Virus record (IMG/VR): IMGVR_UViG_2609459824_000008
Source: a virus
Taxonomy: Duplodnaviria > Heunggongvirae > Uroviricota > Caudoviricetes
Reading direction: 5' to 3' (one strand)
DNA length: 4,564 nt
Under the pieces are notes generated by a model that saw only the letters and a program-made list of their open reading frames with translations, did no database searches and was not told where the DNA came from. The position numbers were made by a program, and so were the translations under genes. Below, one piece after another: positions 1-4,564 of this stretch. The number at the start of each line of letters is the position of its first letter. The stretch's first letter is position 1.

Positions 1-222
1 TTTACCCCGATGGTCTTCAACGAGATGCCACGATGCCTCATCACTGTTGAAAACAGCCACAAAGCCAGCAGGAATATCTGGTGGTGCAATATCGGTACTG
101 TTTGCTGGCAGACCTGTATGAGGCGGAATATATGCGTCACCTTCACCAATAAATTCATTAGTTCCGGCCAGCAGATTATAAATTTTTATGGTCCGTGCTT
201 GTTCACTCATTCTGAATGCCAT
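1..222 (-). CDS. tfa: Tail fibre assembly protein Tfa, N-terminal 74 codons; the 3' end of the gene lies beyond the window start
   Basis: Minus-strand ATG at 222-220. Hand translation of the reverse complement of 1-222 gives [74 protein letters not shown], open to the window edge. This matches the lambda Tfa N-terminus as I remember it almost residue for residue. The start overlaps the stf stop as TAATG. It is absent from the supplied ORF track because it has no in-window stop. Confidence 0.9.
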
Positions 223-3200
223 TATGCAAGCCTCACAATATAGTTAAATGCGATGTTTTTGACGGTGTTTTCCGCGTTACCCGCAGCGTTAACGGTGATG
301 GTGTGTCCATGTGAACCAATCGCAACGGAGTGCGTATGCGCACCAATACCTACAGTATGTGCATGTGCGCCAGAACTTGCTGCAGTACCAGACAGCGAGT
401 GGGTATGAGCACCTGCTGACTGTGTCTGAATACGTTGATAATACGATCTATAGGAAGAAGTCTCCGGGCTTACTTGATACTGTGAATTCTGGACATAAGT
501 GAACCCACCGCCATCATAAAATGCTAACGCAGAACCGCCGCCTCCTGGCCAACGAATACCATTACCATGAGTATGAACACCGGCAGACCCCGTAGAGCCA
601 CTCAGACTGTGCGTATGCGCCCCGGTGTTATTCGTGGATTTAGTGCCGTAATCAAACGACGATGTGGTTTTCGTCCCCAAATCCGTACTGGATGCGCTGG
701 CGCTGTGGGTGTGCGATTTAATGCCGTCCTGTTCCTGAGACAATACGGCCCGGCCACTGGCGGGGTTGCCCTTGATTGTCCAGCCGCGCATATCTGGAAT
801 AACACCTGAAGGATAGGCAATAGCCAGTTTCGGATATGCTGCCTTATCAAACGTCTGCCCCTGCATGATTGCATAACCTGCAGGTGGTGTATCTGATGGC
901 CACGGCAGCGGAACACCTGGCGGAAACGCTTCAATATTTGCCGAGCCGTCAAATTTTACGCCGTTAATTGTCCTTGCAGTTTGCAATTTGGTTGCTGTGC
1001 TTGCATTACCCGATAAAGATCCAGTGATACCACCACTCGCGTTTAATTTAGTTGCAATTGTAACATTGCCAGTATGGTTACTAATTATAAACGGCCTTAA
1101 GCTATTGTGCGTACCAAGACTGTTACCCGAATCTGTCAACATAAAATATGTGTTTGATCCATCATTTCGGATAAAGAATCCATAGTTGCCATAGGCAATA
1201 CGCAGACCATTTGCTGACCTTGAAATAACCTCACCAGCAGCAGTTAAACCACCTGAAAGAGTCCCTCCAGTTAATGCCAATGCCCCAATATTTGAAGGGG
1301 TCAATGTGATATTTGCACTACCATCAAATGACACACCGTTAATCGTTCTGGCTGCCTGAAGTTTCGTGGCGGTCGCAGCATTACCTGTAGTGTTTTGATT
1401 ACCGGTAGCGTTGACTCCAGGCAAGTTGATATCTGCCGATCCATCAAATGCCACGCCCCCAATCTTACGTGCTGTCTTGATCTTGGTCGCAGTATCTGCG
1501 TTTCCGGTCAAATTACCAGTAACACTACCACCAACTTTTAGTCCATTACCGATGGACACCAACCCTGATCTTAAGTTTATAGAGAATGGTCTTAATGAAC
1601 CGATGTCTCCATTTTCCCCCTCCCCTTCATTAGTCGGAATAAGATGAAGATGATCTTCGGAACGCCTAAAAATAAGGCCAAAGGCTTGGTTGAATATTCG
1701 AAGAGCATTTATCGTGCTGATTTTTAACTGCCCTCCCATTGTGTCGCCAGTTTTTTGAACTGAACTATCTTTAACAGTTTTAACTGCCTTTGGCGTTGCC
1801 GCCAGCTTTTCACTGGTGCTGTTTGTTGCACTGCTGAGCTGTACTATCCCCTTTTTCGTCGTGCTCGCATCCTCCAGCGCCACGGCGGATGCAATATCCT
1901 CTGCCCGTTTTGCTGCTGTCTCGGCGCGCGTTGCCGCGGATTCAGCAGCAACTTTGCTCTGAGATGCAGCCGTCGCACTGCCTGCCGCCTCTGATGCTTT
2001 CGTTGTTGCTGTCGTGGCACTACCTTTCGCTGCTGACGCTTGTCTGGTCGCCTCATCTTTTGAAGCAGACGCAGATGATGCCGATGACGCCGCTGAACTG
2101 GCTGACGATGCGGCTGCCGCCTTAGAGGAAGCAGCATTGTCTGCTGAAGTCTTTGCATTTGTTTCAGAGGTTTTTGCTGCAGAAGCAGACCTCGCTGCTG
2201 CAGTGGCTTGCTCAGTGGCTTTGCCAGCCTTCGTTGTGGCTGTTGAAGCGGATGATGCGGCGCTTTCTGCCGATTTTCCGGCGGCGGTGGCACTGGCTGA
2301 GGCCTGCCCGGCACTTGTTGACGCGGCACTGGCAGATAATGCAGCCGCTGTTTTTGAACCTGCCGCAGCTGAGGCGCTCTGTCCCGCTGCTGTTTCAGAA
2401 GACTTAGCGTTCGTCTCGGACGTTTTTGCCGCCTTCGCGGAATTTCCTGCCGCCGTTGCCGAGGAAGCTGCGCTGCTGGCGCTCGAGGCTGCGCTCGTTT
2501 CTGATGATTTTGCCGCCTCTTTTGAAGCTGACGCATCCCGGGCTGAGGTGGCAGCTTCTGACGCTTTCGTGGTCGCGGTGGATGCAGAAGTGGCTGCTGA
2601 TTGTTGTGACGCTGCCGCATTCGTTTCTGACGTTTTCGCCGCAGCGGCACTGGTGGCCGCCGCGCTTTTTGAGGACTCTGCAGCGGCAGCACTTTTTTCC
2701 GCTTCAGTGGCCTTTGTTGATGCCGTTCCTGCGCTGGAAGACGCTGACTGAGCCGACGACGCGGCCTGTCCGGCTGACGTGCTGGCTGCGCGTGCTGAGC
2801 CTGCAGCATCAGTCGCATGGGTTGCCGCCTCACGGGCTGATGTGCCGGCATCGCTGGCTGACTTCTTCGCGGCTGCCGTGTTCTGTGCCACCGCGGACGC
2901 GTTACGCGCCACCTCTTCCACCATCAGTTCAAAACGGCGCAGAGCCTCAGGACGGGCATCATCCTCTGTCATGGCACCGAGAAAATCATTCAGCGTACCG
3001 GGTTGAGAATCTTCATACACGGTAATGGTCCCGGCATGTGATGGCGGGAATCCCTCCACCAACAGACTGACGCTGTACTGACCATACTCGACGTCCATTG
3101 TGTAACGCCCGGCTTCATCCGGGTTTTCTGAGGCCACTGTGTTCACCACCACCGTGGTGCTGTTGCGCCTGGCCTTTAGCTGAATGGTGCAGTTTTGTAT

Positions 3201-3248
3201 CGGCTTACCTGCGCCATCTTTCAGTACACCTGAAATCCGTACTGCCAT
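222..3248 (-). CDS. stf: Side tail fibre protein Stf, intact 1008 aa: lambda-like N-terminal domain, Ala/Ser/Thr-rich shaft, tail-fibre repeat modules, His-x-His C-terminal tip
   Basis: Single uninterrupted ORF in the track. N-terminus [36 protein letters not shown] and C-terminus ...[40 protein letters not shown] match lambda Stf and E. coli prophage StfR-type fibres from memory. Minus-strand ATG at 3248-3246 is preceded by a G-rich Shine-Dalgarno-like run (GGGGGG, plus coordinates 3252-3257). Stop TAA at 224-222. Gene order lom-stf-tfa is as in lambda. Confidence 0.95.
303..713 (-). other. C-terminal tip region of Stf carrying seven His-x-His motifs (predicted metal-binding trimeric needle, as in T4 gp37 and lambda Stf)
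   Basis: HxH pairs at residues 846/848, 878/880, 892/894, 948/950, 962/964, 971/973 and 980/982 (SHTHS, GAHTHS, VHTHG, GAHTHS, AHAHT, AHTHS, SHGHT). On the plus strand these appear as recurring gtg/atg-rich blocks, for example gtgcgtatgcgc at 330-341 and 609-620. Confidence 0.7.
927..1010 (-). repeat. Tail-fibre repeat unit 3 within stf ([28 protein letters not shown], residues 747-774)
   Basis: Same 28-aa motif. DNA 946-1010 (gccgtcaaattttacgccgttaattgtccttgcagtttgcaatttggttgctgtgcttgcattacc) aligns by eye with 1321-1385. Confidence 0.8.
1302..1385 (-). repeat. Tail-fibre repeat unit 2 within stf ([28 protein letters not shown], residues 622-649)
   Basis: Same 28-aa motif. The DNA copy begins exactly 120 nt from unit 1 (1321 vs 1441, both starting ccatcaaatg). 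Confidence 0.8.
1422..1505 (-). repeat. Tail-fibre repeat unit 1 within stf ([28 protein letters not shown], residues 582-609)
   Basis: 28-aa motif G-N-A-x-T-A-T-K-[IL]-x-x-A-R-x-I-x-G-V-x-F-D-G-S-A-x-I present three times in Stf. The plus-strand DNA 1441-1505 (ccatcaaatgccacgcccccaatcttacgtgctgtc...) is visibly similar to 1321-1385. Confidence 0.8.
1869..2891 (-). repeat. Low-complexity Ala/Ser/Thr/Lys-rich shaft-coding region of stf (about residues 120-460) with recurring AAKTSETNA-like motifs
   Basis: The translated Stf is dominated by A, S, T, K, E over about 340 residues. KTSETNA occurs three times (residues ~205-211, ~275-281, ~359-365). The GCN/TCN/ACN codon periodicity explains the long shadow ORFs in other frames and on the plus strand (2014..2751 +, 1844..2851 -). 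Confidence 0.8.
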
Positions 3249-3257
3249 ATTCCCCCC

Positions 3258-3285
3258 ACAAAAAAGCCCGCCTGAACCGGCGGGC
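3258..3285 (-). terminator. Rho-independent terminator between lom and stf (minus strand)
   Basis: Minus-strand sequence GCCCGCC-GGTTCA-GGCGGGC followed by TTTTTTGT. The 7-bp GC-rich stem is at plus 3266-3272 / 3279-3285 with a 6-nt loop; the U-tract corresponds to plus 3258-3265. It lies downstream of the lom stop (3313-3315) and ends about 10 nt before the stf start codon. Confidence 0.65.
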
Positions 3286-3312
3286 TGTCATAACACTGTG
3301 TTACCTGGCTAA

Positions 3313-3912
3313 TCAGAATTTATAACCGACACCAACGATGAAACTGTTGGTACGCCAGTCACCGCTGCCGGAGCCTTCATAAGCAATATCAATGGCCACG
3401 GATTCGGTCGGGTTAAACTGCACGCCAGCTCCCCACGCCAGAGACGTGTTGCTGTGGCGACCGTCATCACTTCCGGTCAGCACGTCGTGCGTTTTCCCCT
3501 TGTTGTCAGTTACGCGGAGATAATCCCCGGAGAAAGTCGACACACGGCTGTAAGCCACACCCGCCATCGCATACGCGCTGAACCATTCATTCACGCGCAC
3601 AGACGGCCCCGCCATCACGCTGAACCAGCGGTTACGAACGGAATCTTCATGCCAGCGGGTATCGCTGTAACGGGTAAGCTGGCGATTCTTGTCTCCTGCA
3701 TAGCTGAATGACGTCACCATCCCCAGTGTGTCCGTAAACTCATAACGGTATTTCACGTTAATCCCGTTCAGATCATCGCTGCCGGGAACGTTCGTCGAGG
3801 CATGAAGATACCCCGCGCTCAGCGTGGACTGATGTTCAGATGCCCATGCAGGCGCACCGGATACGGCCAGACAAATGGCTGCGGACAAAATTGCTGCACA
3901 AACTTTACGCAT
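3313..3912 (-). CDS. lom: Lom outer-membrane beta-barrel protein (Ail/Lom family), 199 aa with N-terminal signal peptide
   Basis: Complete [42 protein letters not shown]...FIVGVGYKF, which matches lambda Lom from memory. It has a signal-peptide-like N-terminus with an AWA-SE cleavage context and a C-terminal aromatic residue (YKF) typical of outer-membrane barrels. Shine-Dalgarno GAGAGG (plus 3918-3923) sits 5 nt upstream of the ATG at 3912-3910; stop TGA at 3315-3313. Confidence 0.93.
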
Positions 3913-3933: not shown

Positions 3934-3960
3934 AATAAAAAAGGCGTCATTCCTGACGCC
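3934..3960 (-). terminator. Rho-independent terminator between J and lom (minus strand), possibly weakly bidirectional
   Basis: Minus-strand sequence GGCGTCA-GGAA-TGACGCC followed by TTTTTTATTG. The stem is at plus 3943-3949 / 3954-3960 with loop 3950-3953; the U-tract is plus 3934-3942. It lies 23 nt downstream of the J stop. On the plus strand the stem is followed by ctttattgg, which is T-rich enough that weak opposite-strand activity is possible. Confidence 0.6.
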
Positions 3961-3982: not shown

Positions 3983-4564
3983 TCAACGAATACTGATGCC
4001 GGAAGCGGCTTTTTTGGTCACAATCACCGTACAGTCGGTGATATTGCCTGCCCCCTGATTGCCTTTCTGGAAAATCTTAAACTCCAGAGTGACGCTTCCC
4101 CTGCCACTCGGCATATCAATAACCGCACTGTAGCTACCGGGAATGGCCCCTTTAGTTTCTCTGGATGCGATTAATACGCCGTTTTTGCGAACTTCAAAAC
4201 CATAACCCGTGTATCTTGTACCTCCCGGGTTATTACCACTTCCCGGATCGCTATACGCTATTCCGTTAAAGATAATGGGCGGAATAATAATTTGACGGTC
4301 AAAGTTATGATCATCGCTGATGGTGACTGTAACCGTCCCGTTTGGTGTTTCCGTATTACCCCACGTACCAGCCTGTTTCGGGAATGATTTGGATACAGCT
4401 TTAACGAAGTCACCTCTGACCTGAGTCGCCTCCAGCATGCCCTTAATCGTACAGTTTTCATTTACCGTGACATTGTTGAGCGTCCCGGCGTTCGCATTCA
4501 CACTGCCACTGATATCCGCATTTTTAGCGGTCAGCTTTCCGTCCGGTGTCAGGGAAAATGCCGG
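3983..4564 (-). CDS. J: Tail tip / host specificity protein J, C-terminal 193 codons; the 5' end of the gene lies beyond the window end
   Basis: The reading frame is open from the window edge (4564) to the TGA stop at 3985-3983. Hand translation upstream of the track ORF gives ...PAFSLTPDGKLTAKNADISGS-VNANAGTLNNVTVNENCTIKG..., matching the lambda gpJ C-terminal region (GKLTAKNADISGSVNANAGTL) from memory. The track's M at 4501 is an internal GTG (Val), not the true start. Confidence 0.9.
   Translation of the reverse strand, partial: PAFSLTPDGKLTAKNADISGSVNANAGTLNNVTVNENCTIKGMLEATQVRGDFVKAVSKSFPKQAGTWGNTETPNGTVTVTISDDHNFDRQIIIPPIIFNGIAYSDPGSGNNPGGTRYTGYGFEVRKNGVLIASRETKGAIPGSYSAVIDMPSGRGSVTLEFKIFQKGNQGAGNITDCTVIVTKKAASGISIR

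Follow-up and report, generated by a model that had tools for sequence, protein, structure and literature searches.

Does the side tail fibre gene of this phage carry repeats that recombine with one another and in this way change the length of the fibre shaft? The DNA analysed here, a window of 4,564 nucleotides from a virus record of the class Caudoviricetes, contains a long open reading frame in which an earlier note, made from the sequence alone, described a 28-residue tail-fibre repeat occurring three times, a duplicated module of about 85 residues around it, and direct repeats at the DNA level that could serve as substrates for unequal recombination. We asked whether these repeats are real, what they are, and what their DNA copies do in related genomes.

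The side tail fibre gene and its surroundings

All genes of the window lie on the minus strand in the order J-lom-stf-tfa, on which Pfam annotation and the annotated locus agree:

3983-4564, minus strand: J, tail-tip protein, C-terminus (PF12421, Ig_GpJ_C)
3313-3912, minus strand: lom (PF06316, Ail_Lom)
222-3248, minus strand: stf, side tail fibre gene, 1008 aa (open reading frame list, Pfam, PDB matches, annotated locus)
Downstream of stf, minus strand: tfa, lambda-like, of which only the N-terminal start lies in the window; its own ATG overlaps the stf stop codon

The window has the same sequence as an annotated prophage locus in E. coli strain AR_0006, where the Stf protein is WP_000216486.1 and the prophage carrying it adjoins potAB/pepT. 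Based on the J-lom-stf-tfa order, the Pfam domains and the matches to solved structures, the 1008-aa open reading frame is the lambdoid side tail fibre gene stf. More specifically, PF08400 (prophage tail-fibre N-terminal domain; tail collar) covers residues 1-134 with 238.4 bits against a cut-off of 26.6, and residues 1-94 match the N-terminus of lambda Stf (PDB 9e7m, E=1.8e-50). The other Pfam regions are PF21446 (Gp34_trimer, residues 620-722), PF07484 (Collar, residues 778-825) and the HxH repeats of PF03335 (Phage_fiber repeats), and residues 743-1008 match the T4 gp37 tip (PDB 2xgf, E=5.8e-79). A search of NCBIfam with the whole Stf protein gave zero matches. The Stf of Ur-lambda comprises a collar, a coiled coil, a hinge, a distal domain and a receptor-binding tip; its side tail fibre is a trimer on the virion and confers faster adsorption through OmpC (PMC12617516). 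From the proximal coiled coil to the tip, the present protein can be laid out as follows:

1884-2945, minus strand: Ala/Ser-rich stretch, residues ~102-455, equivalent of the Ur-lambda Stf proximal coiled coil (indel positions, DNA repeat spacing, domain map in PMC12617516)
1506-1754, minus strand: prism part of module 1, residues 499-581, putative divergent gp34 P4-like beta-prism with flanking strands (BLASTP against module 2)
1422-1505, minus strand: unit 1, residues 582-609, 28 aa (in-register mapping, unit profile)
1386-1421, minus strand: 12-aa linker, residues 610-621, which completes with unit 1 the canonical 40-aa period and holds the mosaic breakpoint of relative P0106 (modal spacing, breakpoints)
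1302-1385, minus strand: unit 2, residues 622-649, 28 aa, with the breakpoint of relative P0108 at its third codon (mapping, profile, breakpoints)
1011-1301, minus strand: prism part of module 2, residues 650-746 (PF21446, PDB matches; domain limits from PMC5537660)
927-1010, minus strand: unit 3, residues 747-774, 28 aa, standing alone (mapping, unit profile)
225-926, minus strand: Collar domain and gp37-like receptor-binding tip with HxH repeats, residues 775-1008 (PF07484, PF03335, 2xgf)

Repeat units and prisms in the protein

The three 28-residue motifs described earlier were recovered by exact mapping at residues 582-609, 622-649 and 747-774, with a pairwise identity of 68-82% (19/28, 19/28 and 23/28). 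With a profile derived from 38 diverse units, exactly three copies were detected in Stf (i-Evalues 1.6e-22 to 5e-22) and no fourth significant one; all three follow the core consensus G-N-A-x-T-A-T-x-L-x-T-A-R-x-I-x-G-V-x-F-D-G-S-x-N-I. Units 1 and 2 form a two-copy array of the canonical repeat with a spacing of 40 aa (starts at 582 and 622), and unit 3 follows unit 2 at 125 aa. Within the limits originally given, the two larger modules align by BLASTP with E=2e-20 and 45% identity; when extended (501-607 against 667-772) the alignment spans 107 aa at 42% identity, and its E-value of 1e-22 rules out chance or a compositional artefact behind the protein repeats. The duplication is thus real, but the length of about 85 aa proposed for the module has to be corrected: since the alignment extends over 107 aa, the true module is longer, and its start lies near the motif TG(D/G)T(M/L)xGxL. 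With this correction, the Stf domains and the module alignment agree with the description of a set of tail-fibre repeats inside a duplicated module.

The identity of the larger part of the module comes from its second copy. PF21446 matches residues 620-722 with 94.1 bits, above the Pfam gathering score of 27, and this is the single stretch found in Stf at E<=0.1, module 1 having no match to the model. In the PDB, module 2 matches T4 gp34 (4uxe and 9x3r, E ~1e-17) and the Mu tail fibre S (5yvq, E=1e-25), and the portion aligned with the P4 beta-prism of gp34, and with residues 268-349 of Mu S, is Stf ~678-735. In the crystal structure, gp34 P4 has an antiparallel sheet of five strands, builds a triangular trimer and lies between thin stretches of triple beta-helix (PMC5537660). 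Module 1 (499-581) appears to be a divergent copy of the module 2 prism; this assignment derives from the BLASTP alignment with module 2 (E=1e-22), a direct Pfam match being absent. An AF2 monomer model of residues 495-790, of low confidence (mean pLDDT 51.6; below 50 in the units), places four to five strands in each module, in a pattern that recurs from one prism to the other, and gives every unit a short helix over TATKLQ(T/A)A. Taken together, each module is predicted to consist of a beta-prism like P4 of T4 gp34 and, after it, one or two copies of the 40-aa-period repeat.

The repeat unit belongs to a large family. A homologue search with an 85-aa stretch of two units returned fragments of at most 150 aa, which fed the unit profile and were not used for copy counts. 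Searched against 1.84 billion representative proteins (clusters at 50% identity), the unit profile matched 20,107 of them at E<=0.001, with at most 20 matched stretches in one protein. When the best 150 of these 20,107 proteins were recounted, they held 4-15 copies each, and the spacing from one unit start to the next had its mode at exactly 40 aa (265 of 874 pairs); the canonical repeat thus consists of a core of 28 aa and a linker of 12 aa, PGVNxxGNQxT. Named phages with the unit include P1/P7 (protein S), Goslar, SSU5, 9g, Acinetobacter and Shewanella phages, and cyanophages.

Neither Pfam-A nor NCBIfam contains a family model dedicated to this unit. PF03406 (Phage_fiber_2) was considered as a candidate and rejected: it has no matches on residues 577-774 even at E<=10, and in homologues it maps to 461-504 and never to the GNAxTATK units, a related motif lying at ~459-493 of this Stf. 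Comparison of the repeat with known tail-fibre families, as the earlier note had proposed, thus places the prism in PF21446 but leaves the unit outside PF03406, Pfam-A and NCBIfam. Against PDB sequences the unit profile gave two marginal matches only, 8vbx (PhiM1 fibre gp47) and 6e3c (phage L Dec); we found no clearly resolved experimental structure of the unit, and the papers on 8vbx and 6e3c give no description of the fold of the segment. In the 6e3c paper, the C-terminal stalk of phage L Dec shows disorder in the monomer, and a trimeric beta-helix was modelled for it.

DNA resemblance, length variation and the probable origin of copy number

Whether the copies can recombine depends on the DNA, in which four short elements are of interest:

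1441-1450, plus strand: 10-mer ccatcaaatg, unit 1 copy (exact repeat search)
1321-1330, plus strand: 10-mer ccatcaaatg, unit 2 copy, coding for S/A-F-D-G on the minus strand (exact repeat search)
1485-1492, minus strand: 8-bp microhomology CTGCGACC, unit 1 copy, 114 nt from the unit 2 copy (exact repeat and alignment with relative P0100)
1371-1378, minus strand: 8-bp microhomology CTGCGACC (coding strand), unit 2 copy (exact repeat and alignment with relative P0100)

Both copies of ccatcaaatg, cited as evidence for direct repeats at the DNA level, are present at 1321 and 1441, but the resemblance around them is weak and close to that of shuffled controls. The DNA of the units is 63-65% identical (35-37% divergent), with third codon positions alike in 11-12 of 28; the 10-mer is the sole exact repeat of at least 10 nt between the copies, so that the longest common exact run is 10 nt, and codon-shuffled controls contain a mean of 0.71 repeats of this kind. 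In a self dot-plot of the DNA, a check suggested in the earlier note, the three best diagonals fall at the expected offsets of 120, 375 and 495 nt; their 22-23 matches in 30, however, do no more than equal the maximum of 200 shuffles (shuffle mean 19.5). Neither a generic repeat search (seed 7) nor Tandem Repeats Finder reported the unit copies in the DNA, and identity was therefore computed in register. Where two units have identical residues, their codons agree in 7, 8 and 8 cases, against 6.6, 6.6 and 8.4 expected from an independent draw of codons. The likeness of the copies at the DNA level thus appears to be a by-product of selection on the protein. Synonymous sites are randomised. The duplications are old, and for this reason the copies probably do not act as substrates for homologous recombination within the gene.

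For efficient pairing, RecA is quoted as needing a segment of at least 31-34 bp and Red-beta one of 23-27 bp, and phage recombinases, too, drop about 100-fold at 12% divergence (PMC3945230). The exact identity tract of 10 nt between the copies lies below this pairing minimum of 23-34 bp. We also looked for recombination products in 5,426 complete E. coli genomes, counting a junction probe as present if it matched over at least 80% of its length. The in-register 120-nt deletion and duplication junctions, both running through the 10-mer, were found in 0 of the 5,426 genomes, and the parental allele (both halves) in 425. Among the records of complete E. coli genomes, 431 contain an 801-nt stretch around the repeats with an identity of at least 99%.

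Comparison with homologues separates two kinds of variation. Close homologues are 896-1008 aa long, and their indels (7, 22, 23, 28, 34, 42, 49, 84 and 105 aa) fall within the Ala/Ser-rich stretch, at residues about 130-420, where DNA repeats are spaced by multiples of 42 nt. Close relatives have three units and others 1, 2 or 4, and 108 of the 120 best homologues keep three; about 105 close homologues hold the 40/125-aa spacing. Among Stf relatives, some have one unit after one prism and others two to three tandem units, and in lambda Stf both unit and prism are absent; entire modules are thus gained and lost across the family. The comparison of stf length across relatives that had been proposed therefore gives a divided answer: unit number does vary (0-4), but among close homologues the differences lie in the Ala/Ser coiled coil, and it is this coiled coil, not the repeat units, that is the length-variable part of the fibre.

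A deletion within the repeats was seen once. P0100 (L002), on one 103-kb metagenome scaffold, lacks 38 aa; apart from this, its DNA does not differ from the window in the aligned part. The deletion removes 114 nt, exactly between the two copies of CTGCGACC, and leaves the hybrid unit GNADTATATKLQ. The two copies are 2 codons out of register and the deletion lies between 8-bp microhomologies, which argues for slippage and not for homologous exchange. The P0100 deletion thus looks like a signature of microhomology slippage, although, as it comes from a single scaffold, it could be an assembly error. Its 114-nt junction was found in 0 of 5,426 complete E. coli genomes; an off-centre probe reached a best coverage of 88%, and no match extended past the 8-bp repeat. 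Two further relatives are mosaics. Up to the linker/unit-2 start, the genes of P0106 and P0108 match the window at 100% identity; beyond it, identity is about 73% and other distal domains follow. Their breakpoints are separated by about 20 nt. P0108 has three tandem units, and P0106 is of the window type upstream and of the P0118 type downstream. The clustering of the breakpoints in these two relatives could reflect selection for junctions that fold, or a preference of recombination.

We consider it likely that the region is an ancient structural part of the shaft, with two old copies of a module and no unequal homologous recombination within the gene. It would form the distal shaft stretch of a trimeric lambda-type fibre, between the Ala/Ser coiled coil and the gp37-like tip, laid out as prism, unit, linker, unit, prism, unit. 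Each of its two ancient module copies would be a knob-like gp34 P4-type beta-prism with one or two repeat copies behind it as a thin spacer; judging from position and homologues, the modules most likely lengthen the fibre and give it defined joints. Copy number would change mainly when parts are exchanged with other fibre genes, the junctions falling at the conserved boundary between linker and unit, and more rarely, as seen once, through slippage between 8-bp microhomologies. The reading first offered for the repeats, that their DNA copies undergo unequal homologous recombination and so alter shaft length in present-day populations, is in our view improbable. It would account for the range of copy number (0-4 in Stf homologues, up to 20 elsewhere) and for the one natural variant in which 38 aa are missing between units 1 and 2. 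The copies are, however, too dissimilar (63-65% identity, with a longest run of 10 nt against pairing segments of 23-34 bp; PMC3945230); the in-register junctions and the 114-nt junction occur in 0 of 5,426 complete genomes; the sole deletion, 2 codons out of register between 8-bp microhomologies, points to slippage; and about 105 close homologues retain the 40/125-aa spacing. In sum, our data support the recombination interpretation only weakly: the one 114-nt deletion between 8-bp microhomologies and the two unit-2 breakpoints favour a weaker form of it, and the low identity, the 10-nt run and the 0 of 5,426 junctions are against it.

Exchange between different fibre genes is another matter. 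That linker plus unit is a preferred crossover point between fibre genes, the repeat being kept partly because it makes distal parts swappable, is a reading to which we give somewhat less than an even chance. In two independent mosaics identity falls from 100% to about 73% within about 20 nt at the linker/unit-2 start, P0106 combines a window-type upstream part with a P0118-type downstream part, and the unit is common to unrelated phages; motif-mediated shuffling of fibre genes is also a long-standing idea, attributed to Sandmeier (in 1994), which we counted in its favour. Yet these are two cases, the available parental types have in common an identity tract of only a few nucleotides at the junction, and selection for correctly folding junctions gives the same pattern. 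A function beyond the shaft, with units or prisms serving as secondary binding modules (e.g., for surface carbohydrate), seems highly improbable to us, even though the phage L Dec paper speculates that the unit-bearing C-terminal stalk could bind carbohydrate and the prism domains resemble the triangular domains of tailspikes. The receptor-binding tip is a separate gp37-like domain, and the sequence of the unit is highly conserved across E. coli, Acinetobacter and cyanobacterial hosts; conservation across such different hosts argues against a host-specific ligand.

The repeats are real, old and widespread protein building blocks in a gene that is already annotated, and as such the finding is ordinary and already known. 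Repeats and mosaicism in fibre genes have reportedly been recognised since the early 1990s, in work attributed to Haggard-Ljungquist (in 1992) and Sandmeier (in 1992 and 1994). The discovery value of an annotated prophage fibre that recurs without change in over 400 complete E. coli genomes is limited. Mildly new is an abundant 40-aa unit that has no curated model in the libraries searched and for which we found no clearly solved structure. A bolder proposal, which we hold as doubtful, is that the 28+12-aa unit is a distinct, undescribed and abundant building block whose linker is perhaps a general in-frame joint for the exchange of distal parts; if this is true, the present locus offers a convenient and well-populated example, with a microhomology deletion and two mosaic junctions. 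In practical terms, the domain boundaries are now set for the insert by which this fibre differs from that of lambda, and the 40-aa unit with its linker provides natural, tolerated splice points that are useful for the engineering of chimeric fibres.

Comparison with known fibres

The closest overall counterpart is the Stf of lambda (Ur-lambda), with which the present fibre shares its position in the J-lom-stf-tfa order, a near-identical N-terminal collar domain (9e7m, E=1.8e-50), an Ala/Ser coiled coil and a gp37-like tip; in both, the gene for the Tfa chaperone overlaps the stf stop codon. Lambda Stf differs in having no 28-aa unit (0 copies) and no gp34-like prism: where it has a short distal segment, the Stf described here has an insert of about 275 aa (499-774).

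For this insert, the relevant comparisons are with other fibres. The C-terminal region of T4 gp34 (P3/P4; 4UXE, 5NXF, 5NXH; PF21446) resembles module 2, with Stf ~667-745 aligned to gp34 ~1039-1115; the two proteins have in common a block of 16 aa followed by ...G..N.LRP, which is also found in Mu S, and both alternate knobs with thin segments. In contrast to Stf, gp34, a different protein that belongs to the long fibre of a myovirus, has no recognisable GNAxTATKLxTARxIxGVxFDGSxNI unit. The strongest solved match to module 2 is the Mu tail fibre S (5YVQ), in which residues 268-350 align with Stf 670-751 and which shares the upstream motif GIVQL..AT....LAAT.KAVK; unlike in Stf, no unit follows the prism of Mu S in that alignment. 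The same consensus with its 12-aa linker is found in P1/P7 S, the Goslar 'tail fiber repeat protein', the fibres of SSU5, 9g and cyanophages, and the C-terminus of phage L Dec. PF03406, the alpha-beta fibre repeat of gp12/gp34, also has a period of about 40 residues, yet it is not the Stf unit. Finally, whereas other repeat proteins carry up to 20 units in tandem, this Stf carries three, one of them isolated.

Length variation in the side tail fibre

What really varies in length in the fibre is the Ala/Ser-rich stretch of stf, the side tail fibre gene.

1884-2945, stf residues ~102-455: Ala/Ser-rich stretch

In close homologues this stretch carries deletions of 7, 22, 23, 28, 34, 42, 49, 84 and 105 aa, the majority of them multiples of 7 aa, and its DNA contains direct repeats with spacings of 84-294 nt, every one a multiple of 42 nt. 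Both the deletion sizes and the repeat spacing are consistent with a heptad-periodic coiled coil. Outside the stf frame, the stretch is overlain by long ORFs of 199-335 aa, on the antisense strand as well as on that of stf:

1844-2851, minus strand: long overlapping ORF
2014-2751, plus strand: long overlapping ORF
2426-3025, plus strand: long overlapping ORF

These look like by-products of the biased, repetitive codons of the stretch; an antisense ‘orf206b’ similar to them is annotated at the corresponding place in the lambda record.

Within the 28-aa repeats, a natural stf variant was found at 2480-2720 of the metagenome scaffold L002 (ENA ERZ28642227 scaffold_31), where 114 nt have been cleanly deleted between two CTGCGACC repeats, so that units 1 and 2 (residues 582-609 and 622-649) are joined two codons out of register. 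This variant is a single sighting from a metagenome assembly, and the deletion was found in none of 5,426 complete genomes. Among the proteins recovered from the representative library with the unit profile (P0241-P0390), those with the 40-aa unit (core plus linker) reach 4,485 aa, with a maximum of 20 matched stretches; some terminate in a Peptidase_S74 intramolecular chaperone domain, and weak, sub-threshold matches to DUF6948 overlap the units.

Signals and genes around stf

Two terminator-like elements, each a GC-rich hairpin with a T run, were located in the window:

3265-3286, minus strand: between lom and stf, immediately upstream of the stf start
3943-3960: between J and lom

Given the lom-stf hairpin, stf transcription would need read-through or a start of its own. 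At the other end of the gene, the stf stop and tfa start codons share one base (TAATG, 219-224); this overlap points to translational coupling between the fibre gene and that of its assembly chaperone.

The part of the prophage that follows tfa and adjoins potB is seen in the E. coli prophage locus L001 and in L002:

L001 3693-4766 and L002 4369-5363: segment downstream of tfa

In both, a gene for a SAM-dependent methyltransferase is encoded on the other strand, accompanied by a remnant second tail-fibre-assembly gene, with potB adjacent. The methyltransferase gene looks like cargo, and the remnant like what is left of a fibre cassette exchanged earlier.

An alpha-beta fibre repeat upstream of the units

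One further motif lies upstream of the units.

~1770-1874, stf residues ~459-493: alpha-beta fibre repeat motif

It occupies the position where homologues match PF03406, and is an alpha-beta fibre repeat of the gp12/gp34 type, present once. Residues 83-150 of Mu S align with this motif, and its position is that of the hinge in lambda.
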